This document shows positions 1 through 22,211 of a stretch of DNA of 64,000 nt, one piece after another (the stretch's first letter is position 1; every line of letters begins with the position of its first letter). The notes under the pieces were generated by a model. That model was not told the DNA's origin. It saw nothing but the letters and a program-made list of their open reading frames with translations, and did no database searches. Location: assembly GCF_988243305.1 (NCBI RefSeq), contig NZ_OZ547136.1; one strand, written 5' to 3'. Both the position numbers and the translations under genes were made by a program.

Positions 1-73
1 TTGTGGTGCGTTGTGGGGCGGACAAGGCATTCGCGCCGCATCCGCCGACGGTCAATCGAATTATCAGAGGCCA

Positions 74-478
<405 letters not shown>

Positions 479-496
479 TCAGGAGCGCAAGTTGCT

Positions 497-787
497 TCAG
501 GCCGCGTGTGAGGCATCTTCCTCTTCGGATTCAGCACCGACGACCTGTGGGGACGGTAATTTGCCGGTTTTCAGAATGGTGCTCAGCACATCTTTTTGTT
601 CTGCCAGCCATAGCGAAAGGGCTTCACGTTGCTCGTCTTCCATTTGCACTGGAGAATTTGTCAGCCAGGTGTCAAGCAGATCCGCCGTATCAAGCATTTT
701 GTCATAAGCATCGGCTTCCTTTTTGCTGGTAAACGACATTTTCTCTTCGCCCTCACGAATGACTACGTATTTAACTTCAACCGCCAT
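497..787 (-). CDS. yebG: DNA damage-inducible protein YebG
   Basis: 96-aa ORF matching remembered YebG; LexA box immediately upstream. Confidence 0.9.
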   Translation of the reverse strand: MAVEVKYVVIREGEEKMSFTSKKEADAYDKMLDTADLLDTWLTNSPVQMEDEQREALSLWLAEQKDVLSTILKTGKLPSPQVVGAESEEEDASHAA

Positions 788-806
788 TTGCAGCCTCTCA
801 TAATAA

Positions 807-822
807 CTGTGATTTTATACAG
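807..822. promoter_or_regulatory. LexA (SOS) box upstream of yebG
   Basis: ctgtgattttatacag = CTGT-N8-ACAG palindrome about 20 bp upstream of the yebG start. Confidence 0.6.
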
Positions 823-920
823 TATATTTCTTTTCGGTTGGGAAATCAACATCAGCAATAAAGACACGCGCAAACGTTTTCGTTTATACTGCGCGCGGAA
901 TTAATCAGGGGATATTCGTT

Positions 921-2099
921 ATGACGTTATTAGGCACTGCGCTGCGTCCGGCAGCAACTCGCGTGATGTTATTAGGCTCCGGTGAACTGGGTAAAGAAGT
1001 GGCAATCGAGTGTCAGCGTCTCGGCGTAGAAGTGATTGCCGTTGATCGCTATGCCGACGCACCAGCCATGCATGTCGCGCATCGCTCCCATGTCATTAAT
1101 ATGCTTGATGGTGATGCATTACGCCGTGTGGTTGAACTGGAAAAACCACATTATATCGTGCCGGAGATCGAAGCTATTGCCACCGATATGCTGATCCAAC
1201 TTGAAGAGGAAGGACTGAATGTTGTCCCCTGCGCGCGCGCAACGAAATTAACGATGAATCGCGAGGGTATCCGTCGCCTGGCGGCAGAAGAGCTGCAGCT
1301 GCCCACTTCCACTTATCGTTTTGCCGATAACGAAAACCTTTTCCGCAAGGCGGTTGCTGACATCGGCTATCCCTGCATTGTTAAACCGGTGATGAGTTCC
1401 TCCGGCAAGGGGCAGACGTTTATTCGTTCTGCAGAGCAACTTGCTCATGCATGGGAGTACGCTCAGCAAGGCGGTCGCGCCGGAGCGGGCCGCGTAATTG
1501 TTGAAGGCGTCGTTAAGTTTGACTTCGAAATTACCCTGCTAACCGTCAGCGCGGTGGATGGCGTCCATTTCTGTGCACCAGTAGGTCATCGCCAGGAAGA
1601 TGGCGACTACCGTGAATCCTGGCAACCACAGCAAATGAGCCAGCTTGCCCTTGAACGTGCGCAAGAGATTGCCCGTAAAGTGGTGCTGGCACTGGGCGGT
1701 TATGGTCTGTTTGGTGTCGAGCTGTTTGTCTGTGGTGATGAGGTGATTTTCAGTGAGGTCTCCCCTCGTCCACATGATACCGGGATGGTGACGTTAATTT
1801 CTCAGGATCTCTCAGAGTTTGCCCTGCATGTGCGAGCCTTTCTCGGACTTCCGGTTGGCGGGATCCGTCAGTATGGTCCTGCAGCTTCTGCCGTTATCCT
1901 GCCACAACTGACCAGTGAGAATGTCACGTTTGATAATGTGCAGAATGCCGTAGGCGCAGGTTTGCAGATTCGTTTATTTGGTAAGCCGGAAATTGATGGC
2001 AGCCGTCGTCTGGGGGTGGCACTGGCTACTGCAGAGAGTGTTGATGAAGCGATTGATCGCGCAAAGCACGCCGCAGCACAGATAAAAGTACAAGCTTAA
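921..2099 (+). CDS. purT: Phosphoribosylglycinamide formyltransferase 2 (formate-dependent GAR transformylase)
   Basis: 392-aa ORF, ATP-grasp fold, matches remembered PurT. Confidence 0.95.
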
Positions 2100-2119
2100 C
2101 CCCGGCGAAAAACGCTACC

Positions 2120-2148
2120 AAAATGCCCGATCGAGGATCGGGCATTTT
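2120..2148. terminator. Bidirectional intrinsic terminator between purT and eda
   Basis: Perfect hairpin aaaatgcccgatc/gatcgggcatttt flanked by A and T runs, between convergent genes. Confidence 0.6.
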
Positions 2149-2153
2149 GACTT

Positions 2154-2795
2154 TTACAGCTTAGCGCCTTCTACAGCTTCACGCGCCAGCTTAGTAATGC
2201 GGTCGTAATCGCCCGCTTCCAGCGCATCTGCCGGAACCAGCCAGGAGCCACCGATGCACAGCACGCTTTTCAGCGCCAGGTAGTCACGGTAGTTAGCCGG
2301 AGAAATACCACCCGTCGGGCAGAAACGGACCTGGGAGAACGGACCCGCGATTGCCTGCAGGGCTTTCACGCCGCCGTTAGCTTCAGCCGGGAAGAATTTG
2401 AACTCTTTCAAACCGTAGTCCATACCCAGCATCAGTTCGGAAACAGTGCTGATCCCCGGAATCAGAGGAATAGTCCCTTCGGTAGCAGCCTTCAGCAGCG
2501 GCTCGGTCAGACCCGGGCTAATTGCGAACTGTGCACCCGCTTCGGTGACTTCTGCCAGCTGCTGTGGATTCAGCACCGTACCGGCACCCACAATCGCTTC
2601 AGGCACTTCTTTGGCGATAGCACGGATAGCGTCAACTGCACACTCGGTACGCAGAGTCACTTCCAGAACGCGCACCCCACCAGCAACCAACGCTTTTGCC
2701 ATCGGCACCGCGTGTTCCAGTTTTTTTACCACGATAACCGGTACAACCGGGCCGGTGGTCAGGATTGATTCTGCACTTGTTTTCCAGTTTTTCAT
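2154..2795 (-). CDS. eda: KDPG / KHG aldolase
   Basis: 213-aa ORF matching remembered Eda; Entner-Doudoroff operon context. Confidence 0.95.
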
Positions 2796-2831
2796 CAGAG
2801 TTTTCTCTCGCCTGATTACAAATTTGTCGTC

Positions 2832-4643
2832 TTAAAAAGTGATACAGGTTGCGCCCTGTTCGGCACCGGACAGTTTTTCACGCAAGGCGCTGAATAATTC
2901 ACGTCCTGTTCCCACGCGTGACGCGCTCAGGTCAGGAATGTGCGGTTCGCGAGCAGCCAGTTCCGCTTCGTCTACCAGCAGCGTCAGTTCGCCTGTCTGT
3001 CCATTCACACGAATGATGTCCCCGTCGCGCACTTTTGCCAGCAGCCCGCCATCGTAGGCTTCTGGTGTTACGTGGATAGCTGACGGCACTTTACCTGAAG
3101 CGCCGGAGAGTCGTCCATCGGTAACTAACGCAATTTTGAAACACCGGTCCAATAATACACCAAGTGGCGGCATGAGTTTATGTAATTCTGGCATTCCGTT
3201 CGCTTTTGGCCCCTGATGACGGACAACAATGACACAATCGCGGTCCAGCAAACCCGCTTCAAAGGCCGGCATAACGTCATGCTGGCTTTCAAAAACAACC
3301 GCAGGCGCTTCAATCACCTGGTTCTCTACCGGCACGGCAGAGGTTTTCATCACCGCTCGGCCCAGGTTACCGCTTAACACTTTTGTCCCACCATGATGAG
3401 AGAAAGGTTGTTCGAAGGAAGCGATCACATTGTTGTCGAGTGATTTTTCTGCCCCTTCCCGCCAGTCCAGTTCACCATTATTCAGCCATGGTTCAAGGGT
3501 ATAACGAGACAGACCAAAGCCTGCCACCGTATTGACATCTTCATGCAGCAGGCCTGCTTTGAGCAGTTCACGCACCAGAACCGGTACGCCACCTGCCGCC
3601 TGGAAGTGGTTAATATCGGCCGGACCGTTCGGGTAGAGACGTGCCATCAGCGGTACAACATCAGAAAGGTCAGAAAAGTCATCCCAGTTAATCTGAATAC
3701 CGGCCGCGCGTGCCATCGCCACCAGGTGCATGGTGTGGTTAGTGGAACCACCGGTCGCCAGCAGTGCAACGATACCGTTCACCACCACTTTCTCATCGAT
3801 CATCTTACCGATCGGCATCCATTCATTACCATTACCGGTCATGCGTGTAACCTGGCGCGCAGCGGCTGCGGTCAAAGCATCGCGCAGCGGAGAATCCGGA
3901 TGAACAAAAGAAGAGCCTGGCAACTGCATCCCCATAAACTCCACCACCATCTGGTTGGTGTTGGCAGTACCGTAGAAAGTACATGTTCCCGGCGCATGAT
4001 AAGACGCGGCTTCTGACTCCAGTAATGCCATGCGGTCCACTTTACCTTCGGCATAAAGCTGGCGAATACGCACTTTTTCTTTATTTGGCAAACCGCTTGC
4101 CATCGGTCCAGACGGCACAAACACCGCAGGCAAATGCCCAAACGACAGGGCTGCCATCGTCAGACCCGGGACAATCTTGTCGCACACACCGAGGAACAGA
4201 GCACCATCAAACATGTTATGGGACAGCCCCACCGCCGCAGACATCGCAATCACTTCGCGGCTTAACAGCGACAATTCCATTCCATCCTGCCCCTGGGTGA
4301 CACCATCACACATCGCCGGAACACCGCCTGCAACCTGACCAACCGCATTTGCTTCATGCAGGGCTTTACGAATGATTTCTGGATAGTGTTCATAAGGCTG
4401 GTGAGCGGAGAGCATGTCGTTATAGGAGGTGATGATGGCGATATTGTTACGCAACATGCTTTTCAATGAGGCTTTGTCTTCTGGCTGGCAGGCAGCGAAA
4501 CCGTGTGCCAGGTTACCGCATGCCAACTGCGAACGATGAACGGTCGAAGTTTTCGCTTGTTCTATCCGGGCGAGATAAGCAGAGCGAGTCTCGCGCGAAC
4601 GTTCAATGATTCGATTTGTTACGCGTAACAATTGTGGGTTCAT
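2832..4643 (-). CDS. edd: Phosphogluconate dehydratase
   Basis: 603-aa ILVD/EDD-family ORF upstream of eda. Confidence 0.95.
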
Positions 4644-4763
4644 AAAGGCTCCTGAAATTGAGTTGTCAGAGCAGGATGATTCACAACGCGTTTCATTCAG
4701 AGGATTTATGACTGAAACGCCTGTAACCGGAGCTCATAGGGCAAAAACGTTTCAGTCAGTGTA

Positions 4764-4798
4764 ATAAAAAAAGCCTCGTGGGTGAATCCGCACGAGGC
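4764..4798 (-). terminator. Intrinsic terminator downstream of zwf
   Basis: Hairpin gcctcgtg...cacgaggc followed on the minus strand by a T run. Confidence 0.55.
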
Positions 4799-4877
4799 CT
4801 GAAAGTGTAAAAATTGTTCTACAATCTGTGCAAGATCATGTTACCGGTAAAATAACCATAAAGGATGAGCGCAGATA

Positions 4878-6353
4878 TTACTCAAACTCATTCCAGGAAC
4901 GACCATCACGGGTAATCATTGCCACCGAGGCAACGGGTCCCCAGGTTCCGGCCTGATACGGTTTCGGCGCATCATTGTCCATCGCCCACGCCTCAGTAAT
5001 GGAGTCTACCCATTTCCAGGCTTCTTCCACTTCATCACGACGAACAAACAGTGCCTGAATACCACGCATGGTTTCCAGCAGCAGACGTTCATAGGCATCC
5101 GCCAGATGCGTCTGATTAAAGGTTTCTGAATAGCTCAGGTCCAGCTTGGTGATTTGCAGGTTATGTTTGTGGTCAAGGCCAGGAACTTTATTCAGTACCT
5201 GGATATCCACGCCTTCATCAGGTTGCAGACGGATAGTCAGTTTATTTTGCGGTAGATCCTGCCACGACTCTTTAAACAGATTCAGTTCAGGTGTTTTGAA
5301 ATAGACCACGACTTCAGAGCATTTGGTCGGCAGACGTTTACCAGTACGCAGGTAGAATGGCACACCGGCCCAGCGCCAGTTATCAATGTCGACGCGGATC
5401 GCCACGAAGGTTTCTGTATTGCTGCTCTTGTTCGCGCCCTCTTCTTCCAGATATCCCGGCACTTTTTTGCCCTGGGCGAAGCCCGCAGTATATTGCCCGC
5501 GTACGGTTTTTTCGCGTACGTTGGAGCGGTCAATACGGCGCAGAGACTTCAGTACTTTCACTTTTTCATCGCGGATGCTGTCTGCACTCAGGTCAGACGG
5601 CGGAGACATCGCAATCATGCAAAGAATTTGCAGCAGGTGGTTCTGGATCATGTCGCGCATCTGACCGGCTTTATCAAAATAGCCCCAGCGCCCTTCGATC
5701 CCCACTTCTTCTGCCACGGTAATCTCAACATGATCGATGGTGCGATTGTCCCAGTTATTCACAAACAGGGAGTTAGCAAAACGCAGCGCCAACAGGTTCA
5801 GCACCGTTTCTTTACCAAGATAGTGGTCGATACGGTAAACCTGGCACTCCTCGAAGTATTCGCCAACCTGATCATTGATTTCCTGCGAGGTCGCCAGCGA
5901 CGTCCCCAGCGGTTTCTCCATGACTACGCGTGCCGGTTTAGCATTCAGTTTTGCCTCACCAAGCCCTTTGCAAATTGCGCCAAAAGTGCTGGGCGGCATA
6001 GCAAAGTAGTTAATGGTGATACGATTTTTTTGATCCAGCATCGCGCCGAGACGGCTGAATGCAGCAGTGTCATTGACATCGAGATTACAAAAATCCAGAC
6101 GTGCACTCAGGGTGTCCCATAAACCTTCATCAATGGTTTCTTTCATGAAAGTTTCGAGCGCCTCGCGGACAACTTTGGTATAAGCCGCTTTATCCCAGTC
6201 AGCACGCCCTACGCCGATAATCCGGGTGTCCGGGTTGAGCTGACCGGCTTTTTCCAGTTGATACAGGGAAGGCAGCAATTTACGACGCGCAAGGTCGCCT
6301 TTCGCGCCGAAAATGACCAGGTCACAGGCCTGGGCTGTTTGCGTTACCGCCAT
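4878..6353 (-). CDS. zwf: Glucose-6-phosphate 1-dehydrogenase
   Basis: 491-aa ORF with G6PD motifs (RIDHYLGKE). Confidence 0.95.
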
Positions 6354-6690
6354 GTCATTCTCCTTAAGTTAACTATCCCGGTACTTAAGCCAGGGTATAC
6401 TTGTAATTTTCTTACGGTGCACTGTACTGCTTTTACGAGCTTGCGAAAACTGTAAACGCTTATCCACCCGTGCGATTACGGTAAAAGCGCGCAAAGTGCG
6501 GCAAAACTGATAAAAAAATCATCGTTTTCCATTGGGTAAAAATCTGACACTGATCATGTTATGAAAAAAAATAACAACTTTTTTATCTGCTTTTGTCATT
6601 AACACAGCACACAGGCGTAATATCTGACAAAACTGCATTTCGATTTCTTTCAGTGCGGAAATCGTCATTACCCGTGAGTCTCTTTACATC

Positions 6691-7560
6691 ATGAATATGC
6701 TGGAAAAAATCCAGTCTCAGCTGGAACATTTGAGCAAATCAGAGCGCAAAGTTGCCGAGGTCATTCTGGCTTCGCCCGATAACGCGATCCATTCGAGTAT
6801 TGCTGCTCTGGCGCTGGAAGCCAATGTTAGCGAACCGACGGTGAATCGTTTCTGTCGCAGCATGGACACGCGCGGTTTTCCTGATTTTAAACTTCATCTG
6901 GCACAAAGTCTGGCGAATGGCACTCCCTATGTTAATCGCAACGTCAATGAAGATGACAGCGTTGAATCATACACGGGGAAAATATTTGAGTCCGCAATGG
7001 CAACGCTCGATCATGTCCGTCATTCACTGGATAAATCTGCCATCAACCGCGCCGTCGACTTGCTCACTCAGGCAAAAAAAATCGCCTTTTTCGGATTAGG
7101 CTCTTCAGCCGCCGTTGCCCACGATGCGATGAATAAGTTCTTTCGTTTTAATGTTCCGGTGGTGTACTCCGATGATATTGTGCTGCAACGCATGAGTTGT
7201 ATGAATTGTAGCGACGGAGACGTGGTGGTGCTGATATCTCACACTGGAAGAACAAAAAATCTGGTCGAGCTGGCGCAGCTGGCACGCGAAAACGACGCCA
7301 TGGTGATTGCCCTCACCTCTGCGGGTACCCCGCTCGCCCGGGAAGCAACGCTGGCAATTACCCTCGACGTACCGGAAGATACTGACATTTATATGCCCAT
7401 GGTTTCTCGACTTGCGCAGCTGACCGTGATAGATGTGCTGGCAACAGGATTTACTTTGCGACGCGGTGCAAAATTCAGAGATAACTTGAAGCGGGTCAAG
7501 GAAGCGCTGAAGGAATCGCGTTTTGATAAGCAGTTACTTAATTTAAGTGACGATCGCTAA
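6691..7560 (+). CDS. hexR: RpiR/HexR-family transcriptional regulator (HTH + SIS domain)
   Basis: 289-aa ORF, divergent from zwf, matches remembered YebK/HexR. Confidence 0.9.
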
Positions 7561-7687
7561 AAACGACTGTCACTGTCCTAATCTTATACGACATCCGAAT
7601 GAGATTAATTTATCGCCATCGCGGCGTTATTTCATTCGGATTTCATGTTCAAGCAACACCTGGTTGTTTCAGTCAACGGAGTATTAC

Positions 7688-9130
7688 ATGTCCAGAAGGC
7701 TTCGCAGAACTAAAATCGTTACCACGTTAGGCCCAGCAACAGATCGCGATAATAACCTTGAAAAAGTTATCGCGGCGGGTGCCAACGTTGTACGTATGAA
7801 CTTTTCTCACGGCTCGCCTGAAGATCACAAAATGCGCGCGGATAAAGTTCGTGAGATTGCCGCAAAACTGGGGCGTCATGTGGCTATTCTGGGTGACCTC
7901 CAGGGGCCCAAAATCCGTGTATCCACCTTTAAAGAAGGCAAAGTTTTCCTCAACATTGGTGATAAATTCCTGCTCGACGCCAACCTGGGTAAAGGTGAAG
8001 GCGACAAAGAAAAAGTCGGTATCGACTACAAAGGCCTGCCTGCTGACGTCGTGCCTGGTGACATCCTGCTGCTGGACGATGGTCGCGTTCAGTTAAAAGT
8101 ACTGGAAGTTCAGGGCATGAAAGTGTTCACCGAAGTGACCGTCGGTGGTCCCCTCTCCAACAATAAAGGTATCAACAAACTTGGCGGCGGTTTGTCGGCT
8201 GAAGCGCTGACCGAAAAAGACAAAGCAGACATTAAGACTGCAGCGTTAATTGGCGTAGATTACCTGGCTGTCTCCTTCCCACGCTGCGGCGAAGATCTGA
8301 ACTATGCCCGTCGCCTGGCACGCGATGCAGGATGTGATGCGAAAATTGTTGCCAAGGTTGAACGTGCGGAAGCCGTTTGCAGCCAGGATGCAATGGATGA
8401 CATCATCCTCGCCTCTGACGTGGTAATGGTTGCTCGCGGCGACCTCGGTGTGGAAATTGGCGATCCGGAACTGGTCGGCATTCAGAAAGCGTTGATCCGT
8501 CGTGCACGTCAGCTAAACCGCGCGGTAATCACTGCGACCCAGATGATGGAGTCAATGATTACTAACCCGATGCCGACGCGTGCAGAAGTCATGGACGTAG
8601 CAAACGCCGTTCTGGATGGTACTGACGCTGTGATGCTGTCTGCAGAAACTGCTGCTGGTCAGTATCCTTCAGAAACTGTTGCAGCCATGGCGCGCGTTTG
8701 CCTGGGTGCGGAAAAAATCCCGAGCATCAACGTTTCTAAACACCGTCTGGACGTTCAGTTCGACAATGTGGAAGAAGCTATTGCCATGTCAGCAATGTAC
8801 GCAGCTAACCACCTGAAAGGCGTTACGGCGATCATTACCATGACCGAATCGGGTCGTACCGCGCTGATGACCTCCCGTATCAGCTCTGGTCTGCCGATTT
8901 TCGCCATGTCACGCCATGAACGTACGCTGAACCTGACTGCTCTCTATCGCGGCGTTACGCCGGTGCACTTCGATAGCGCTAATGACGGCGTAGCAGCTGC
9001 CAGCGAAGCGGTTAATCTGCTGCGCGATAAAGGTTACTTGATGTCTGGTGACCTGGTGATTGTCACCCAGGGCGACGTGATGAGTACCGTGGGTTCTACT
9101 AATACCACGCGTATTTTAACGGTAGAGTAA
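7688..9130 (+). CDS. pykA: Pyruvate kinase II
   Basis: ORF 7547..9130 trimmed to the [17 protein letters not shown] start; pyruvate kinase motifs. Confidence 0.95.
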
Positions 9131-9137
9131 GTACGTT

Positions 9138-9172
9138 GCCGGATGCGGCGAAAACGCCTCATCCGGCCTACA
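9138..9172. repeat. REP element
   Basis: gccggatgcggcg...cctcatccggc palindromic unit after pykA. Confidence 0.5.
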
Positions 9173-9261
9173 GTTCAATGATAGTTCAACAGATTTCGAA
9201 TCTTCTGAAGCAAACTTGAACTTATCACAAGGCGGAAGCCTCTCCTCGCGAGAGGCTTTTT

Positions 9262-10233
9262 TTATTTGATGGGATAAAGATCTTTGCGCTTATACGGTTG
9301 GATTTCGCCCGGTTTGCGAGTTTTCAGCAATTTTAATATCCAGGTGTATTGTTCTGGTCGCGGACCAACAAAAATCTCGACTTCTTCATTCATCCGCCGC
9401 GCAATTGTATGATCATCCGCCTCTAACAGATCATCCATCGGTGGGCGCACCTGAATCGTCAGACGATGCGTCTTGCCATCATAAATCGGAAACAGCGGTA
9501 CAACGCGCGCACGACACACTTTCATCAAACGACCAATCGCGGGCAACGTCGCTTTATAGGTGGCAAAGAAATCAACAAATTCGCTGTGCTCTGGGCCATG
9601 ATCCTGATCGGGTAAATAATATCCCCAGTAGCCCTGACGTACCGACTGGATGAATGGTTTAATACCATCATTTCTCGCATGCAGACGACCGCCAAAACGA
9701 CGACGCACCGTGTTCCAGACATAATCAAAAACCGGGTTGCCCTGATTATGGAACATCGCTGCCATTTTCTGCCCTTGCGAGGCCATCAGCATGGCCGGGA
9801 TATCGACGGCCCAACCGTGCGGCACCAGAAAAATCACTTTCTCGTTATTACGCCGCATCTCTTCGATGATCTCCAGCCCTTGCCAGTCAACGCGCGGCTG
9901 AATTTTCTCCGGCCCGCGTATTGCCAACTCAGCCATCATTGCCATCGCTTGCGGCGCGGTGGCAAACATCTCATCAACAATCGCTTCGCGTTCAGCTTCA
10001 CTACGTTCTGGAAAGCAGAGCGATAAATTGATTAACGCACGACGGCGTGAGCTTTTTCCCAGGCGTCCGGCAAAACGTCCCAGCCGTGCCAGAATGGGGT
10101 CGCGAAACTTTGGCGGCGTTAAAGCAATACCCGCCATCGCTGCTACGCCCAGCCATGCTCCCCAGTAGCGCGGGTGGCGAAAGGATTTATCAAACTCAGG
10201 AATGTATTCGCTATTATTTTTTTTCGTTTCCAT
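9262..10233 (-). CDS. lpxM: Lipid A biosynthesis myristoyltransferase
   Basis: 323-aa ORF of the HtrB/MsbB acyltransferase family. Confidence 0.9.
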
Positions 10234-10352
10234 GCTTTTCCAGTTTCGGATAAGGCAAAAATCAATCTGGTGATAGTGTAGCGGCGCAACTTGCCCCGCA
10301 CCAAATAAAAAAAGCCGGTACTGACTGCGTACCGGCTGCGAATGGATGTTAA

Positions 10353-11675
10353 TTAATCAAACCGTAGCTGCGGCACAATCTCTTTGGCCTGCGCCAGGAA
10401 TTCGCGACGATCGGAGCCGGTCAGCCCTTCGGTACGCGGCAGTTTTGCCGTCAGCGGGTTTACGGCCTGCTGGTTTATCCATACTTCATAGTGCAGATGC
10501 GGCCCGGTTGAACGTCCGGTATTACCGGAAAGCGCGATACGGTCGCCACGTTTCACCTTCTGTCCCGGTTTCACCAGAATCTTGCGCAAGTGCATATAAC
10601 GCGTGGTGTAGCTGCGACCATGACGAATAGCCACATAATAACCTGCTGCGCCACTGCGTTTGGCAACCACCACTTCACCGTCACCCACTGAAAGCACCGG
10701 CGTACCCTGTGGCATGGCGAAATCAACACCTCTGTGTGGCGCAACACGACCAGTCACCGGATTAGTACGACGCGGGTTAAAGTTAGACGAGATACGGAAC
10801 TGTTTCGCCGTCGGGAATCGCAAGAATCCTTTCGCCAGACCAGTACCGTTACGATCGTAGAATTTGCCATCTTCAGCGCGGATTGCGTAATAATCTTTAC
10901 CTTCTGAACGCAAACGTACGCCCAGCAGTTGGCTTTGCTCACGTTTACCATCAAGCATTTCTCGTGACATTAACACCGCAAATTCATCGCCTTTTTTCAG
11001 TTTGCGGAAATCCATTTGCCACTGCATGGCTTTAATCACTGCGCTCACTTCGGCGCTGGTTAAACCGGCGTTTCTGGCGCTGGCAACAAAGCTTCCCCCG
11101 ACGGTACCTTTCAGCAGATTGTTGACCCACTCTCCTTGCTGCATTTCGCTGGTCATTTTAAAACCGTTAGCGGCAGTACGGTCATAGGTTCGGGTTTCAC
11201 GACGAGACACTTCCCAGGTGAGGCGCTGCAGTTCGCCGTCCGCGGTTAATGTCCAGGAGAGTTGTTGACCGATTTTCAGGTTACGCAATTCTTTGTCGGC
11301 AGCAGCCAATTGGGTGATATCACCCATATCAATACCATACTGATTGAGAATGCTGCTTAGCGTATCGCCAGTGGAAACAACATATTCATGCACGCCCGCT
11401 TCACCGGCGATTTTGTCATCCAGTTCATCCTGGGGAATGGCTTCATCTTCTTGTGCAGCTTGATCAATCGGCTCACTGGCTTCAGGTAAGAGCGAACGAA
11501 TTTCGTTCTGTTCCAGCTCAATGGTTTTGACAATTGGCGTGGCATCGCGGTGATAAACATAGGGCCGCCAGACAGCGACGGCCAGAGTAAGAACGGTGAG
11601 CGACCCCAACATAACGCGGTGTGGTCGCGGTAAATTATTAAACGCCAGGGCGACAGAGCGGGCTATCTGTTGCAC
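10353..11675 (-). CDS. mepM: Murein DD-endopeptidase MepM (LysM + M23 peptidase)
   Basis: 440-aa ORF with M23 motif (HLHYEV); matches remembered YebA. Confidence 0.9.
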
Positions 11676-11690
11676 GTAATCACTTCCTCA

Positions 11691-12623
11691 TTAATCTCCT
11701 TTCAGGCAGCTCGCATACTGGTTGGCTAATTGATTCAGGAATTCTGAATAGCTTGTTTTACCCAGTTTGATATTCGTCCCCAGGGGATCCAACGTTCCCA
11801 TACGAACGGATGTCCCTCGTGCGACGCTCTCAACGACCGCTGGCCTGAACTGTGGCTCAGCAAAAACGCAGGTTGCTTTTTGCTCAACCAACTGTGTTCT
11901 TATTTCATGTAAACGCTGCGCGCCAGGTTGAATCTCAGGGTTAACGGTAAAATGACCAAGCGGTGTCAGTCCGAACTGTTTTTCGAAATAGCCGTAAGCA
12001 TCGTGAAAAACGAAATAACCTTTCCCCTTGAGCGGCGCGAGCTCGTTACCAACCTGCTTTTCGGTTGAGGCTAATTGTGCCTCAAAATCCTTCAGGTTGG
12101 CGTCAAGTTTGGCTCGACTTTGCGGCATAAGTTCCACTAATTTTCCATGGATTGCAACCGCTGTAGCCCGCGCTATCTCTGGGGAAAGCCAAAGATGCAT
12201 GTTGAAATCGCCGTGATGGTGATCTTCGTCACTTTTTTCCGCGTGGTCGTGATCATCATCATCGCCGTGAATACTTTTCATCAGCAGCGGTTTCACATTC
12301 TCTAGCTGCGCAATCGTTACCTGTTTCGCTTCAGGTAATTTACTTACCGGTTTTTGCATGAACGCTTCCATCTCCGGGCCAACCCAAACGACTAAGTCCG
12401 CGTTCTGTAAGCGTTTTACATCTGATGGACGCAGTGAATAATCATGTTCTGAAGCGCCGTCAGGTAGTAAAACCTCCGTTTCTGTTACCCCATCAGCAAT
12501 GGCAGAAGCGATGAACCCAACGGGTTTAAGCGAAGCGACAACGGCAGCATCTGCGGCCTGTGTTGCACCGCCCCAGAGAGCGGCGGATAATGCTGCGAAA
12601 AGAAGCGTTTTTTTATGTAACAT
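11691..12623 (-). CDS. znuA: Zinc ABC transporter periplasmic binding protein
   Basis: ORF 11691..12749 trimmed to the [15 protein letters not shown] signal-peptide start; His/Asp-rich loop. Confidence 0.9.
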
Positions 12624-12651
12624 AATGCGACCAATCATCGTAATGAATATG

Positions 12652-12674
12652 AGAAGTGTGATATTATAACATTT
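12652..12674. promoter_or_regulatory. Zur box in the znuA-znuC divergent promoter region
   Basis: Near-palindrome gaagtgtgatattataacatttc between the two divergent starts. Confidence 0.5.
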
Positions 12675-12701
12675 CATGACTACTGCAAGACTAAAATTAA
12701 C

Positions 12702-13457
12702 ATGACAAGTCTGGTTTCCCTGGAAAATGTCTCGGTTTCTTTTGGCCAACGCCGCGTCCTCTCTGATGTGTCGCTGGAACTTAAACCTGGAAAAATTTTG
12801 ACTTTACTTGGGCCAAATGGCGCAGGTAAGTCGACACTGGTACGGGTAGTGCTCGGGCTGGTAACACCCGATGAAGGGGTTATCAAGCGCAACGGAAAAC
12901 TGCGCATCGGCTATGTACCGCAGAAGCTGTATCTCGACACCACGTTGCCACTGACCGTAAACCGTTTTTTACGCTTACGCCCTGGCACACATAAAGAAGA
13001 TATTTTGCCTGCACTGAAACGTGTCCAGGCCGGGCATCTGATTAACGCACCGATGCAAAAGCTCTCGGGTGGCGAAACACAGCGTGTATTGTTAGCGCGA
13101 GCATTGTTAAATCGACCGCAATTATTAGTGCTGGATGAACCCACTCAGGGCGTGGATGTGAATGGTCAGGTGGCGTTATATGACCTTATTGACCAGTTGC
13201 GTCGCGAACTGGATTGTGGCGTTTTAATGGTCTCTCACGATCTGCATCTGGTAATGGCAAAAACCGATGAAGTGCTTTGCCTGAATCACCACATTTGTTG
13301 TTCCGGTACACCGGAAGTTGTTTCCCTGCATCCGGAGTTTATTTCTATGTTTGGTCCTCGTGGTGCTGAACAACTGGGTATCTATCGCCATCATCATAAT
13401 CATCGTCACGATTTACAGGGACGAATTGTTTTGCGTCGGGGAAATGATCGCTCATGA
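12702..13457 (+). CDS. znuC: Zinc ABC transporter ATP-binding protein
   Basis: 251-aa ORF with Walker A (GPNGAGKST) and ABC signature (LSGGE). Confidence 0.95.
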
Positions 13458-14239
13458 TTGAATTATTATTTCCCGGTTGGTTAGCCGGGATCATGCTCGC
13501 CTGTGCCGCGGGTCCGCTGGGTTCGTTTGTGGTCTGGCGTCGTATGTCTTATTTCGGTGATACGCTGGCCCATGCCTCATTACTTGGTGTCGCGTTTGGT
13601 TTGTTGCTGGACGTGAATCCATTCTATGCGGTGATTGCAGTTACGCTGCTGCTGGCGGGCGGTCTGGTATGGCTGGAGAAGCGTCCACAGCTGGCGATCG
13701 ACACGTTATTAGGGATTATGGCGCACAGTGCCCTGTCGCTGGGCCTGGTGGTCGTTAGTCTGATGTCTAATATTCGTGTTGATTTGATGGCTTACCTGTT
13801 CGGTGATTTGCTGGCAGTGACGCCAGAAGATCTCATCTCTATTGCAATTGGCGTGGTCATCGTGGTGGCGATTTTGTTCTGGCAATGGCGCAATTTGCTG
13901 TCGATGACGATTAGCCCGGATCTGGCGTTTGTTGATGGTGTGAAATTACAGCGCGTGAAATTGTTGTTGATGCTGGTGACGGCATTGACGATTGGTGTAG
14001 CGATGAAATTTGTCGGCGCGTTGATTATTACTTCGCTGCTGATTATTCCTGCAGCTACAGCGCGTCGCTTTGCCCGCACGCCGGAACAGATGGCCGGTGT
14101 CGCTGTTTTGGTGGGAATGGTGGCAGTAACTGGCGGTTTAACCTTTTCCGCATTTTACGATACGCCGGCGGGTCCGTCGGTAGTGCTATGTGCGGCACTG
14201 TTATTTATTATCAGTATGATGAAAAAGCAGGCCAGTTAA
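13454..14239 (+). CDS. znuB: Zinc ABC transporter permease
   Basis: 261-aa polytopic membrane ORF overlapping the znuC stop. Confidence 0.95.
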
Positions 14240-14257
14240 TCTATCGCTGAACACATT

Positions 14258-15402
<1,145 letters not shown>

Positions 15403-15407
15403 TTACC

Positions 15408-16019
15408 TCATAACGCGGCGCGTAGGGCTTCGCGAATTAATGTTTCACTGCTGGCGTCAGGGCGAGCGATTTTGCTCACCATGCGGCTTGCTTCTTGTGG
15501 TTTATAGCCCAGCGCCACCAGCGCGGCAACCGCTTCCTGTTCAGCATCGTCGGTCACCGGGCTGGCAGGTGACGTGAGTACCAGGTCGGCAGCTGGCGTA
15601 AAGAGATCGCCATGCAAACCTTTAAATCGGTCTTTCATTTCAACAATCAAGCGTTCGGCGGTTTTTTTGCCAATACCCGGCAGTTTCACTAGTGCCCCCA
15701 CTTCTTCACGCTCAACGGCATTAACGAACTGCTGCGCTGACATTCCAGAGAGGATCGCCAGCGCCAACTTCGGGCCGACGCCGTTGGTTTTGATCAACTC
15801 TTTGAACAACGTGCGCTCTTGTTTATTGTTAAAACCGTACAGCAGTTGCGCGTCTTCACGCACCACAAAGTGGGTGAAAACGATCGCTTCCTGACCCGCT
15901 TCAGGGAGTTCATAAAAACAGGTCATCGGCATATGCACTTCATAGCCTACGCCGCCCACTTCAATTAACACCAGCGGGGGTTGTTTTTCAATGATGATGC
16001 CTCTGAGTCTGCCTATCAC
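15408..16019 (-). CDS. ruvA: Holliday junction DNA helicase subunit
   Basis: 203-aa ORF immediately upstream of ruvB. Confidence 0.95.
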
Positions 16020-16070
16020 ATGACGCTCCTGCGTAATGAATCAAAGATAATGCTTATGATAAAAAAATGC

Positions 16071-16086
16071 TGGATAGATATCCAGC
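16071..16086. promoter_or_regulatory. LexA box of the ruvAB operon
   Basis: ctggatagatatccag palindrome about 50 bp upstream of the ruvA start. Confidence 0.6.
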
Positions 16087-16829
16087 GAAGGATGAAGAAA
16101 ACTTGCGAGGCGTCCCGATGTTCTGAAAAATGACGCAGTATAATTTTTTCTACAGGTTATATTGGAAGCAAATATTTAAATATTACATATTCAGTGAAAA
16201 AATGCGTAATAAAAATACACATTGCGCCTCCTGAAAAAATAAATTTTTTATGCTATTACGTATATTCATATCTATTTCAATGGAATGACAACGTGAATAT
16301 TAATTATCCTGCTGAATATGAAATTGGTGATATCATCTTTACATGTATAGGTGCTGCCTTATTTGGTCAAATATCAGCTGCATCAAATTGCTGGAGTAAT
16401 CACGTCGGGATCATTATCGGTCATAACGGTGAAGACTTTCTGGTTGCAGAAAGCCGTGTTCCCCTCTCAACCATCACTACGCTATCCCGTTTTATTAAAC
16501 GCTCTGCTAATCAACGCTATGCTATAAAGCGATTAGACGCCGGGCTAACAGAACAACAAAAACAACGAATTGTTGAACAGGTTCCCTCCCGGCTACGCAA
16601 ACTTTACCACACCGGTTTTAAATACGAATCTTCGCGCCAGTTCTGTTCAAAATTTGTCTTTGATATTTATAAAGAGGCACTATGTATTCCGGTGGGTGAA
16701 ATAGAGACGTTTGGAGAACTGTTAAACAGCAATCCAAATGCAAAACTCACTTTCTGGAAATTCTGGTTCCTGGGTTCTATTCCGTGGGAGCGTAAAACCG
16801 TCACGCCAGCCAGTTTGTGGCATCATCCG

Positions 16830-16838
16830 CGTTTGGTG
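16830..16838. repeat. IS10 target-site duplication, left copy
   Basis: cgtttggtg immediately abuts the IS; identical 9-mer at 18168-18176. Confidence 0.85.
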
Positions 16839-16851
16839 TAAGGAGATCCCC

Positions 16852-18060
16852 TCATAATTTCCCCAAAGCGTAACCATGTGTGAATAAATTTTGAGCTAGT
16901 AGGGTTGCAGCCACGAGTAAGTCTTCCCTTGTTATTGTGTAGCCAGAATGCCGCAAAACTTCCATGCCTAAGCGAACTGTTGAGAGTACGTTTCGATTTC
17001 TGACTGTGTTAGCCTGGAAGTGCTTGTCCCAACCTTGTTTCTGAGCATGAACGCCCGCAAGCCAACATGTTAGTTGAAGCATCAGGGCGATTAGCAGCAT
17101 GATATCAAAACGCTCTGAGCTGCTCGTTCGGCTATGGCGTAGGCCTAGTCCGTAGGCAGGACTTTTCAAGTCTCGGAAGGTTTCTTCAATCTGCATTCGC
17201 TTCGAATAGATATTAACAAGTTGTTTGGGTGTTCGAATTTCAACAGGTAAGTTAGTTGCTAGAACCCATGGCTCCTTTGCCGACGCTGAGTAGATTTTAG
17301 GTGACGGGTGGTGACAATGAGTCCGTGTCGAGCGCTGATTTTTTCGGCCTTTAGAGCGAGATTTATACAATAGAATTTGGCATGAGATTGGATTGCTTTT
17401 AGTCAGCCTCTTATAGCCTAAAGTCTTTGAGTGACTAGATGACATATCATGTAAGTTGCTGATAGGTTTCCAGTTTTCCGCTCCTAGGTCTGCATATTGT
17501 ACTTTTCCTCTTACTCGACTTAACCAGTACCAACCCAGCTTCTCAACGGATTTATACCATGGCACTTTAAAGCCAGCATCACTGACAATGAGCGGTGTGG
17601 TGTTACTCGGTAGAATGCTCGCAAGGTCGGCTAGAAATTGGTCATGAGCTTTCTTTGAACATTGCTCTGAAAGCGGGAACGCTTTCTCATAAAGAGTAAC
17701 AGAACGACCGTGTAGTGCGACTGAAGCTCGCAATACCATAAGTCGTTTTTGCTCACGAATATCAGACCAGTCAACAAGTACAATGGGCATCGTATTGCCC
17801 GAACAGATAAAGCTAGCATGCCAACGGTATACAGCGAGTCGCTCTTTGTGGAGGTGACGATTACCTAACAATCGGTCGATTCGTTTGATGTTATGTTTTG
17901 TTCTCGCTTTGGTTGGCAGGTTACGGCCAAGTTCGGTAAGAGTGAGAGTTTTACAGTCAAGTAATGCGTGGCAAGCCAACGTTAAGCTGTTGAGTCGTTT
18001 TAAGTGTAATTCGGGGCAGAATTGGTAAAGAGAGTCGTGTAAAATATCGAGTTCGCACAT
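16852..18060 (-). CDS. IS10 transposase
   Basis: 402-aa ORF (MCELDILHDSLYQFCPELHLKRLNSL...) matching remembered Tn10/IS10 transposase. Confidence 0.9.
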   Translation of the reverse strand: MCELDILHDSLYQFCPELHLKRLNSLTLACHALLDCKTLTLTELGRNLPTKARTKHNIKRIDRLLGNRHLHKERLAVYRWHASFICSGNTMPIVLVDWSDIREQKRLMVLRASVALHGRSVTLYEKAFPLSEQCSKKAHDQFLADLASILPSNTTPLIVSDAGFKVPWYKSVEKLGWYWLSRVRGKVQYADLGAENWKPISNLHDMSSSHSKTLGYKRLTKSNPISCQILLYKSRSKGRKNQRSTRTHCHHPSPKIYSASAKEPWVLATNLPVEIRTPKQLVNIYSKRMQIEETFRDLKSPAYGLGLRHSRTSSSERFDIMLLIALMLQLTCWLAGVHAQKQGWDKHFQANTVRNRNVLSTVRLGMEVLRHSGYTITREDLLVAATLLAQNLFTHGYALGKL

Positions 18061-18122
18061 CTTGTTGTCTGATTATTGATTTTTGGCGAAACCATTTGAT
18101 CATATGACAAGATGTGTATCTA
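18053..18122 (+). ncRNA. Probable IS10 RNA-OUT antisense RNA
   Basis: Placed from known IS10 architecture (antisense RNA overlapping the transposase start, running toward the outside end); not independently verified in sequence. Confidence 0.35.
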
Positions 18123-18167
18123 CCTTAACTTAATGATTTTTACCAAAATCATTAGGGGATTCATCAG

Positions 18168-18176
18168 CGTTTGGTG
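18168..18176. repeat. IS10 target-site duplication, right copy
   Basis: cgtttggtg. Confidence 0.85.
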
Positions 18177-18234
18177 TTGATTCATGCGGAGGGAGTGGAA
18201 ACGCCTCAGCCGGAACTGACCGAGGCGGTATAAC

Positions 18235-18756
18235 TTAACGCAGTCGCCCTCTCGCCAGGTTCAGCCGCGATTCGCTCATCTGCATCGCATTCTGACTGAC
18301 GTGACAATGGGTAATCGCGATAGCTAATGCATCGGCAGCATCCGCCTGTGGATTAGCGGGCAGTTTCAGCAAGGTGCGGACCATATGCTGCACCTGGCTT
18401 TTTTCAGCACTACCAATACCTACCACCGTTTGCTTTACCTGACGTGCCGCATATTCAAATACCGGCAATTCCTGATTCACCGCCGCCACAATCGCCACGC
18501 CGCGTGCCTGCCCCAGTTTCAGGGCTGAGTCAGCGTTCTTCGCCATAAAGACTTGTTCAATGGCGAAATAATCAGGCTGGAACTGGGTAATGATTTCCGT
18601 CACGCCCGCATAGATGAGCTTCAGACGAGACGGTAAATCATCCACTTTGGTGCGTATGCATCCGCTACCCAGGTAGGAGAGTTGCCTGCCTACCTGGCGG
18701 ATGACGCCATAGCCGGTCACGCGCGAACCCGGGTCAATACCGAGAATAATAGCCAT
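18235..18756 (-). CDS. ruvC: Holliday junction resolvase
   Basis: 173-aa ORF beginning [18 protein letters not shown]. Confidence 0.95.
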
Positions 18757-18790
18757 CACGCGTCTCCGTTTTGCTGTTTAGCAGGCCTCA

Positions 18791-19531
18791 TCAGAGAGTC
18801 GCTGCAACCTCATCAGAGATTTCACCGTTATGGTAAACTTCCTGCACGTCGTCGCAATCTTCCAGCATATCGATCAGACGCATCAGTTTCGGTGCGGTTT
18901 CTGCATCCATATCAGCTTTGGTGGACGGGATCATGGAAACTTCCGCGCTGTCTGCTTTCAGACCTGCCGCTTCCAGAGCGTCGCGCACTTTACCCATTTC
19001 TTCCCATGCAGTGTAGACGTCAATCGCGCCGTCATCATAGGTCACAACGTCTTCAGCACCTGCTTCCAGAGCTGCTTCCATGATGGTGTCTTCATCGCCT
19101 TTCTCGAAGGAGATCACGCCTTTTTTGCTGAACAGGTAGGCTACGGAACCATCGGTACCGAGGTTACCGCCACATTTGCTGAATGCATGACGCACTTCAG
19201 CAACGGTACGGTTGCGGTTGTCAGACAGACATTCAATCATGATTGCCGTGCCGCCAGGACCGTAACCTTCGTAGATGATGGTTTCCATGTTTGCATCATC
19301 ATCACCGCCCACACCACGTGCAATTGCGCGGTTCAGAGTGTCACGGGTCATGTTGTTAGACAATGCTTTATCAATTGCTGCACGCAGACGCGGGTTAGCG
19401 TCCGGGTCACCACCGCCCAGCTTAGCCGCGGTTACCAGCTCACGAATGATTTTAGTGAAGATTTTACCGCGCTTAGCATCCTGCGCAGCTTTACGATGTC
19501 TGGTGTTGGCCCATTTACTATGACCTGCCAT
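18791..19531 (-). CDS. yebC: YebC/PmpR-family transcriptional regulator
   Basis: 246-aa ORF beginning [14 protein letters not shown]. Confidence 0.95.
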
Positions 19532-19559
19532 AAAAATATCTCCAGATAGCCCTGCCTGT

Positions 19560-20012
19560 TCAGGCAGCGTTAATTACAAACTGTTCAATCGCCTGCCGGT
19601 TGCTCCAGGACTTAGTGAGCGCCGCCGCAGCAGGCGCATCAAGCCACTTGTAGGCCAGATGTTCAGTGAAGACGACCTGGCGTTCGTGCGGGAGCGCAAG
19701 ACAGAACCATGATTCCGTATTACGCGTCACGCCCGGCGCATAGCGATGACGTAAATGTGAAAAAATTTCAAATTCTACCGTGCGCTGACAGTCAATTAAG
19801 GTCAGTTGTTCAGCGACAACATCGATGGTGACCTCTTCCTTTACTTCGCGCATGGCAGCTTGCGGCGCGGTTTCACCCTCTTCCACGCTGCCGGTTACCG
19901 ACTGCCAGAAATCGGGATCGTCACGCCGCTGCAACATCAGCACCCGTTTCGTATCTTGTGCATAGATGACCACTAAGATCGAAACGGGACGCTTATACAC
20001 TTTATCCTTCAC
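19560..20012 (-). CDS. nudB: Dihydroneopterin triphosphate diphosphatase (Nudix)
   Basis: Nudix box ([20 protein letters not shown]); start placed at the GTG corresponding to the remembered [11 protein letters not shown]-terminus. Confidence 0.8.
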
Positions 20013-20129
20013 GCTGCCTCTTCGTTGACTGCCTTCGCTCATCCCATTCACATAGTTATCTATGCTCATGGGAGTTCACTCAGTTGCCGCCTCGATGCAA
20101 CGCGAATGATTTCGTGTATTTGAGTCATA

Positions 20130-21902
20130 TCAGTTATTCTCTGCCTTCTTCACAACCTGAATGCTCAGCTCAGCCAGTGCAGTCGGGTTAGCAAAGCTCG
20201 GTGCTTCAGTCATCAGACACGCTGCCGCCGTGGTTTTCGGGAAGGCGATAACGTCACGGATATTGTCGGTGCCGGTCAGCAGCATGGTCAAACGGTCAAG
20301 ACCGAATGCCAGGCCTGCGTGCGGCGGAGTACCGTATTTCAGGGCGTCGAGCAGGAAGCCGAATTTCTCGCGCTGTTCCTCTTCGTTGATACCCAGAATA
20401 CCAAACACCGTCTGCTGCATATCACCATTATGGATACGCACAGAACCACCGCCCACTTCGTAACCATTGATGACCATATCGTAAGCGTTCGCCACCGCAT
20501 TTTCCGGTGCAGCTTTCAGTTCTGCTGCCGTCATGTCTTTTGGTGAGGTGAACGGATGGTGCATTGCCGTCAGGCCGCCTTCACCGTCGTCTTCAAACAT
20601 CGGGAAGTCGATAACCCACAGCGGTGCCCATTTGCTTTCGTCGGTCAGACCAAGGTCTTTACCCACTTTCAGGCGCAGTGCACCCATCGCGTCGGCAACA
20701 ATTTTCTTGTTGTCGGCACCGAAGAAAATCATATCGCCATCTTGCGCGGCAGTACGATCCAGAATGGCTTCGATGATTTCTGCATTAAGGAACTTCGCTA
20801 CCGGGCTGTTGATACCTTCCAGACCTTTCGCGCGCTCGTTAACTTTAATGTAAGCCAGACCTTTCGCGCCGTAGATTTTAACGAAGTTACCGTATTCGTC
20901 GATCTGTTTACGGGTCAGCGATGCGCCGCCCGGAACGCGCAGAGCCGCTACGCGACCTTTCGGATCGTTCGCCGGACCTGCAAATACTGCAAATTCAACG
21001 GATTTCAGCAGATCGGCAACGTCGGTCAGTTCCATCGGGTTACGCAGATCCGGTTTATCAGAGCCGTAACGGCGTTCGGCTTCCGCAAAGGTCATTACCG
21101 GGAAATCGCCCAGATCCACGCCCTTCACTTCCAGCCACAGATGACGCACCAGCGCTTCCATCACTTCACGCACTTGCGGCGCGGTCATGAAAGAAGTTTC
21201 CACATCGATCTGAGTAAATTCAGGCTGACGATCAGCGCGCAGGTCTTCGTCACGGAAGCATTTAACGATCTGATAGTAACGGTCAAAACCGGACATCATC
21301 AGCAGCTGTTTGAACAACTGTGGGGATTGCGGCAGTGCGTAGAATTTACCTTTGTGCACACGAGAAGGCACCAGGTAGTCACGCGCGCCTTCCGGCGTGG
21401 CTTTGGTCAGCATCGGAGTTTCGATGTCGAGGAAGCCGTGGTCATCCATAAAACGGCGCACCAGGCTGGTGATTTTAGCGCGGGTTTTCAGGCGCTGAGC
21501 CATTTCCGGGCGACGCAGGTCGAGGTAGCGGTATTTCAGACGCGCTTCTTCGGTGTTGACGTGGTTAGAGTCAAGCGGCAGAACATCTGCGCGGTTGATG
21601 ATAGTCAGCGAGGACGCCAGCACTTCAATTTCGCCGGTCGCCATATCGCGGTTAATATTTTTTTCGTCACGCGCACGTACGGTGCCCGTGACCTGAATGC
21701 AGAACTCATTACGCAGTTCAGAGGCCAGCTTTAACGCGTCCGCACGATCCGGATCGAAAAATACCTGCACGATACCTTCGCGGTCGCGCATATCGATGAA
21801 GATCAGGCTACCAAGATCACGACGACGGTTGACCCAACCACACAGAGTCACCTGCTGCCCCACGTGGGACAAACGGAGCTGTCCACAATATTCTGTACGC
21901 AT
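20130..21902 (-). CDS. aspS: Aspartate--tRNA ligase
   Basis: 590-aa class II aminoacyl-tRNA synthetase. Confidence 0.95.
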
Positions 21903-22211
21903 GAGATATCCCTTAACTTAGCTGCCGGCGGATGCCCCCTGCTGCGCAGGTGACCAAGTCGCAGCGTTAGCTGTATGTCACAACTGAATGAAAAAAGGCG
22001 GCTATTATACTGGAAATTCTGCCGCACCGTAAGAGCCTGGCCCGCGCTGGAACACCTCGTTACCACTTTATATCGGGCCTGAAATCAGACTCTACGCCAG
22101 TTTGCTATAAAGGTGTTGCCCGAACTCATAAAAATTAACAAAATTTGTCGTTCCGCCATCGGCTAATCGCATTAAGGTGAGAGGCACTATTTTGTTTTGT
22201 CAGGAGTCATC

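Follow-up and report, generated by a model that had tools for sequence, protein, structure and literature searches.

An IS10 copy at the 3' end of yebB in this stretch of E. coli DNA raises the question of whether an insertion sequence whose inside end starts with unusual bases is a dead remnant or a working element. The preliminary description had reported a full 1329-bp IS10 with an intact transposase and a perfect 9-bp target duplication, and had suspected that the inner tip was divergent. We analysed the whole 64-kb stretch, referred to here as the window. The sequence and its list of open reading frames placed a full IS10 of the IS10-Right type, exactly 1329 bp long, at 16839-18167, and self-BLAST found this one copy only in the window. 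The features of the locus were as follows:

16293..16841, plus strand: truncated yebB, 182 codons from a GTG start, with its stop TAA (16839-16841) supplied by the IS tip
16830..16838, no strand: left 9-bp target-site duplication CGTTTGGTG, a single copy in the empty site
16839..18167, minus strand: IS10, IS10-Right type (NCBI name ISVsa5), 1329 bp, outside end at 18167 and inside end at 16839
16839..16842, no strand: noncanonical inside-end tip, TAAG in place of CTGA, bases 5-1329 being ordinary IS10R-type
16845..16848, no strand: GATC (Dam) site in the inside end, kept in the variant (sequence scan)
16852..18060, minus strand: intact IS10 transposase gene, 402 aa (list of open reading frames; Pfam DDE_Tnp_1 match)
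18053..18122, plus strand: RNA-OUT antisense RNA of IS10 (Rfam RF00240, 99.5 bits, gathering score 41)
18098..18101, no strand: GATC (Dam) site within the pIN region, close to the outside end (sequence scan)
18168..18176, no strand: right 9-bp target-site duplication CGTTTGGTG, a single copy in the empty site
18177..18233, plus strand: severed 3' remnant of yebB, 18 codons and stop (comparison with the uninterrupted locus)
18235..18759, minus strand: ruvC, converging on yebB, with 67 bp between its stop codon and the outside end of IS10

The element has the 1329-bp length of IS10, a single 402-aa DDE transposase, the 9-bp duplication and RNA-OUT, and its outside end starts 5'-CTGATGAATCCCC. 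The inside end of IS10 is expected to start 5'-CTGAGAGATCCCC; that of the window reads TAAGGAGATCCCC and is canonical from base 5. Since all the other IS10 features are present and 1322 of 1329 bases are identical to the reference, the element is best filed as an end variant of IS10 and not as a separate element. Its DNA was identical to a copy annotated with transposase WP_001339197.1, the same protein as in the IS10-Right of Tn10 on R100. In keeping with the established IS10 literature, we take the GATC at 16845..16848 to regulate the inside end and that of the pIN region at 18098..18101 to be regulatory as well. In E. coli 19KM1831, the closest uninterrupted locus retrieved, CGTTTGGTG occurs once, inside yebB, and the copies on the two sides of the element are therefore a genuine target-site duplication. 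The full-length element, its intact transposase and the perfect duplication were thus all borne out.

The deviation at the tip proved real. Both IS10R and IS10L of Tn10 (R100, NC_002134.1) read CTGAGAGATCCCC, as the preliminary description had expected; the first four bases of the window element differ, and alignment to the reference did not give an exact match. Over the whole length, the element differed from IS10R at 7 of 1329 bases and from IS10L at 18 of 1329. Four of the seven differences from IS10R made up the tip (inside-end bp 1-4), and the other three lay at IS10 bp 47, 83 and 203, numbered from the outside end. The yebB insertion is also on record elsewhere. The Logan contig ERR15423954_780 equals window 14261-16868 with 0 mismatches over 2608 bp, including CGTTTGGTG followed directly by TAAGGAGATCCCCTCATAATTTCCCCAAAG. 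A 314-kb contig of GCA_052135155.1 matched the window up to 16837 and broke there, and the YebB that it encodes is annotated as E. coli. The 182-aa truncated YebB ending at the TAA of the tip is on record in both of these assemblies. An assembly error seems unlikely, because the same yebB junction recurred without a mismatch in an independently assembled short-read contig. IS-typing tools and annotation pipelines that expect CTGA ends would misplace the boundary of a TAAG element.

Two of the differences from IS10R, at window 18085 and 18121 (IS10 bp 83 and 47), fall within RNA-OUT, at nt 33 and 69. Both bases match the Rfam consensus, and the two changes are probably natural polymorphism for that reason. 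One of them falls in the unpaired loop region, the part to which the 5' end of RNA-IN pairs, and the differences could alter cross-inhibition between IS10 subtypes.

The TAAG tip was extremely rare. The exact 26-mer tip was absent from 100,044 GTDB species genomes, the metagenome contig collection and the IMG/VR viral contigs. Inside ends located by a tip-free pattern carried CTGA in all five IS10 elements from GTDB and all 52 from metagenomes, as did the 11 inside ends of other IS10 copies retrieved from E. coli. We searched PLSDB, the phage collection and the E. coli genomes with a 120-bp query beginning at the tip. No TAAG was found in PLSDB (1859 places) or the phage collection, where every alignment began at base 5 or later. 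Among 5426 complete E. coli genomes (4875 places), just two records aligned from base 1: strain 142, from the environment in Switzerland, and strain S103EC, from a human in Australia. No donor plasmid or phage for the TAAG element was found in the GTDB, metagenome, viral contig, PLSDB or phage collections.

These two strains provided the key comparison. The IS10 in each was identical to that of the window at 1329 of 1329 bases, the TAAG tip included, and occupied a different locus, an island beside argP/lysS, with its own 9-bp duplication TGCTCTGCA on both sides. When the empty site was rebuilt and searched, strain 32-4 was found to carry the empty allele, with one TGCTCTGCA. An identical TAAG element at a second locus, with its own duplication and an empty allele, would therefore have moved at least once, which contradicts the decayed and immobilised element implied by the preliminary description. 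Both known insertion sites of the TAAG element, which number two only, showed a perfect 9-bp duplication of a site fitting the IS10 target preference and had a known empty allele. The evidence that the window copy may be competent to transpose is this identical variant at the second, duplication-flanked locus. The flanks of the window reached at best 99.1-99.6% identity to any complete E. coli genome (5426 in RefSeq), and the lineage of the window thus differs from that of 142 and S103EC. None of the complete E. coli genomes appears to be closely related to it.

The core genes of window 1-14000 (edd, zwf, pyk, mepM and purT) and 18177-22000 (ruvC, yebC, nudB and aspS) likewise reached 99.3-99.6% at best against any of the 5426 complete genomes of E. 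coli in RefSeq.

A likely ancestor of the variant is also on record. The IS10 of E. coli 18SZHZ655Rt (NZ_CP080056.1), located in pefC and flanked by the 9-bp duplication CGTGCAGCA, was identical to the window element at bases 5-1329, whereas its tip was the canonical CTGA. It was the sole CTGA copy with this identity among 2424 matching records, and is likely the progenitor of the TAAG variant or its ancestral state. That TAAG is tied to the same rare backbone at both loci argues for common descent. Most likely, the tip changed once and the TAAG-tipped element then underwent at least one transposition. We consider it likely, taking the explanation as a whole, that an IS10-Right-type element entered the yebB gene of E. 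coli at its 3' end by an ordinary cut-and-paste event, and that this element belonged to a rare sublineage whose inside-end tip had changed once from CTGA to TAAG. What is new is that such a tip is heritable and common to copies elsewhere, and that it is evidently compatible with transposition.

The target sites were typical of IS10. We tabulated 48 distinct metagenome insertion sites, which gave a preference for G at position 2, C over T at 3, T at 4, A over G or T at 6, G at 7 and C over T at 8. This agreed with the classical IS10 target rule, NGCTNAGCN. The yebB site CGTTTGGTG has G2, T4 and G7 together with the tolerated minor bases T3, G6 and T8, and both TAAG target 9-mers, CGTTTGGTG and TGCTCTGCA, fit the tabulated position preferences. 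Near-identical 9-mers, for example CGCTTGGTG and TGCTTGGTG, serve as IS10 targets elsewhere.

The yebB site itself was found to be occupied in five other complete E. coli genomes, ET12567, C9, VE-F10, 364_BP0073 and PEC399, where IS10 lies at exactly the base pair hit in the window and points the same way. Unlike the window copy, these five alleles had canonical tips and represented three other IS10 types (IS10R-like, hybrid and IS10L-like). Their duplicated 9-mer was GGTTTGGTG and not CGTTTGGTG, because the host allele differs. C9 and ET12567 have K-12 flanks in common, but 10 bases distinguish their IS10 copies. An IS10L-type copy is present in VE-F10, 364_BP0073 and PEC399; VE-F10 and 364_BP0073 have identical flanks, with 51 differences from those of the K-12 type. 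Three IS10 sequence types on two host backgrounds, all in one orientation with the window included, imply that the yebB site is a recurrent IS10 target, probably hit in at least three or four separate events counting that in the window. The site is worth knowing as such; a search of the literature for IS10 together with yebB found no paper.

Besides its IS10 at the recurrent target, PEC399 carries an ISApl1 insertion in yebB (retrieved locus 1575-2549). The dam- K-12 laboratory strain ET12567 has IS10 in at least 40 places, and its yebB copy is an IS10L/IS10R hybrid. IS10 activity is elevated without Dam methylation; the IS10 load of this strain is consistent with such elevated activity, and the hybrid with conversion between copies.

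Among the alternatives, decay in place survives best, and we still regard it as unlikely. Here, a canonical IS10 would have entered yebB and later acquired four tip substitutions, leaving a dead element. The CTGA tip at the same site in all five other yebB::IS10 genomes is in line with this, and either TAAG locus could in principle be the birthplace of the mutation. However, the identical 1329-bp variant occurs elsewhere with its own 9-bp duplication, in divergent strains and at a site with a documented empty state. A TAAG-tipped element must on this evidence have transposed at least once, hence it would not be dead, and the tip is linked to a rare backbone common to both loci.

Less probable again is that the same change arose twice, with two canonical copies separately gaining TAAG by gene conversion from a TAAG copy or by recurrent templated mutation. 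Template switching can produce multi-base substitutions, and the change raises the palindromy around GATC from 1/6 to 4/6 arm positions, as judged by eye; yet one of the four changes misfits the palindrome template. Conversion of the last four bases would require homology past the tip, whereas the flanks of the two loci are unrelated, and only one IS10 copy is present in each of 142 and S103EC. Neither did any other tip variant appear among the 52 metagenome, five GTDB and 11 retrieved E. coli inside ends.

Two specific origins of the tip were also considered and rejected. Quasi-palindrome templating around GATC accounted by eye for only three of the four changes. A P-nucleotide or mis-resolved hairpin origin would yield TCAG followed by CTGA and lengthen the element, by sequence reasoning, and this was not observed.

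That the tip stems from an error of sequencing, assembly or editing, or from laboratory construction, is very improbable: short-read assembly of IS ends is difficult and TAAGGAG looks like a stop codon with a Shine-Dalgarno sequence behind it, an arrangement used in engineered constructs, but the tip is present in at least three independent data sets (the window, the Logan contig from two samples, and the complete Swiss and Australian genomes), the hosts are natural isolates distant from K-12, and the window holds no Tn10 or vector sequence. A recoded or engineered genome, suggested by the stop and ribosome-binding-site look of TAAGGAG, was set aside for similar reasons, as the flanks are natural E. 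coli sequence that diverges from K-12 by about 4%, and wild isolates carry the variant too.

A Tn10-exposed or laboratory lineage, proposed on the strength of the usual association of IS10 with Tn10, found no support. IS10 matches were present in 1968 of the 5426 complete E. coli genomes, with at least 80% of the length covered in at least 1174 of the 5426; the sources of the IS10-bearing strains were animals, humans, water and food, and IS10 is also carried by over 1100 PLSDB plasmids. An element this common in natural isolates is not the mark of a laboratory lineage. In the composite Tn10, tetR/tetA(B) and associated genes lie between two IS10 copies in inverted orientation; the 64-kb window holds one IS10 and gave no match to the Tn10 interior of R100. 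The flanks of the window differ by about 4% from K-12.

A lambdoid prophage occupies window 30000-52000, with terminase, portal, tape-measure and tail-tip J genes; many E. coli genomes hold prophages that are 95-97% identical to it.

The insertion appears to have cost the host little. Comparison with the uninterrupted 19KM1831 gene, which has CGTTTGGTG once, confirmed that the 3' end of yebB is truncated. The loss, first put at about 20 codons, amounts to 18, and an in-frame TAA at 16839-16841 gives a 182-aa product. In the intact 200-aa YebB, the Peptidase_C92 domain (Pfam) spans residues 10-184. The 18 C-terminal residues lost thus lie almost wholly outside the catalytic domain, and nearly all of Peptidase_C92 is kept. 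A canonical tip would give YebB an IS-encoded tail of 14 residues (LRDPLIISPKRNHV), as in the five other alleles, whereas the TAAG of the window stops it at the junction.

The start codon of yebB at window 16293 is GTG, compared with ATG in E. coli 19KM1831.

The insertion had been placed directly upstream of ruvC, with possible polar effects. In fact, ruvC is intact, is on the minus strand and converges on yebB, and the IS10 lies 67 bp beyond the ruvC stop codon. Because the element is past the 3' end of this convergent gene, a polar effect on ruvC is implausible. The transposase gene is on the same strand as ruvC, and so read-through from ruvC would run into the outside end in sense orientation. 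IS10 reportedly resists activation by such read-through, as Davis, Simons and Kleckner are said to have found in 1985. Read-through from pOUT, antisense to the 3' end of ruvC, is conceivable. A promoter and terminator scan around the insertion gave nothing above the shuffled expectation. The consequences for the host are probably small, and the insertion is likely close to neutral.

The mobility of the variant must be reconciled with what is held about IS10 ends. IS10/Tn10 is a textbook model of cut-and-paste transposition, in which cleavage and the hairpin chemistry are held to require the terminal base pairs. Mutational work in the Kleckner and Haniford laboratories is said to show that changes at bp 1-3 strongly reduce the steps after binding. 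From this, the four-base substitution should cripple the end, which counts against mobility. In the variant, the subterminal transposase-binding region of the inside end, its GATC, the transposase protein and RNA-OUT are all unchanged or intact. The same transposase protein is also found in IS10 copies with canonical tips, so the enzyme carries no compensating change.

Structural probing of the ends offers a possible explanation. In an interference footprint, the depleted stretch, called the transposase-binding site, spanned bp +7 to +23, and missing nucleosides from +5 to -5 on the inside-end side enhanced complex assembly (PMC3159471). At the Tn10 end, the base T+2 on the non-transferred strand flips out and promotes hairpin resolution; if not sequestered, it hinders formation of the hairpin (PMC2705183). 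The variant has A at +2 in place of T, and its transferred strand ends TTA-3' compared with CAG-3'. We propose that the transposase would still bind bp ~7-23 of the variant inside end, which would then be synapsed with a normal outside end. The cut would be made at the usual distance from the binding site, and the altered tip would thereby be carried along with the element. The chemistry would be slowed, giving a weakened but working end. With the flipped T+2 base and the terminal CAG-3' gone, the TAAG end probably has reduced activity. Strains 142 and S103EC have one IS10 copy each, where the median for genomes with any match is 2 places and the maximum 45; the single copies may hint at low activity.

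On balance, we favour the view that an element without the canonical terminal CTG/CAG-3' and the flipped T+2 base at its inside end can still be excised and integrated by the IS10 transposase. If this is true, the cut site would be set by the distance from the subterminal binding site and not by the terminal sequence, and the TAAG variant would represent a naturally attenuated, low-copy IS10 lineage still spreading between E. coli lineages. A natural TAAG element with proper duplications at two loci would be a ready-made substrate for asking whether the transposase reads the tip or measures it.

The closest known system is the IS10-Right of Tn10 on R100, named 'IS4-like element ISVsa5' by NCBI. 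It shares with the window element the 1329-bp length, transposase WP_001339197.1, the outside end, RNA-OUT, the Dam sites, the 9-bp duplication and the target preference. Relative to it, the window copy has TAAG and not CTGA, together with the changes at bp 47, 83 and 203, and is solitary, outside Tn10. The laboratory mutants of the terminal base pairs and the T+2 base-flipping work offer a second comparison, as they likewise concern the terminal bases only, outside the transposase-binding region, where these bases act in cleavage and hairpin chemistry (PMC2705183, PMC3159471). The laboratory mutants, however, are engineered single-position changes assayed in vitro or in vivo, whereas TAAG replaces four bases in a natural element, and its mobility is deduced only by comparing genomes.
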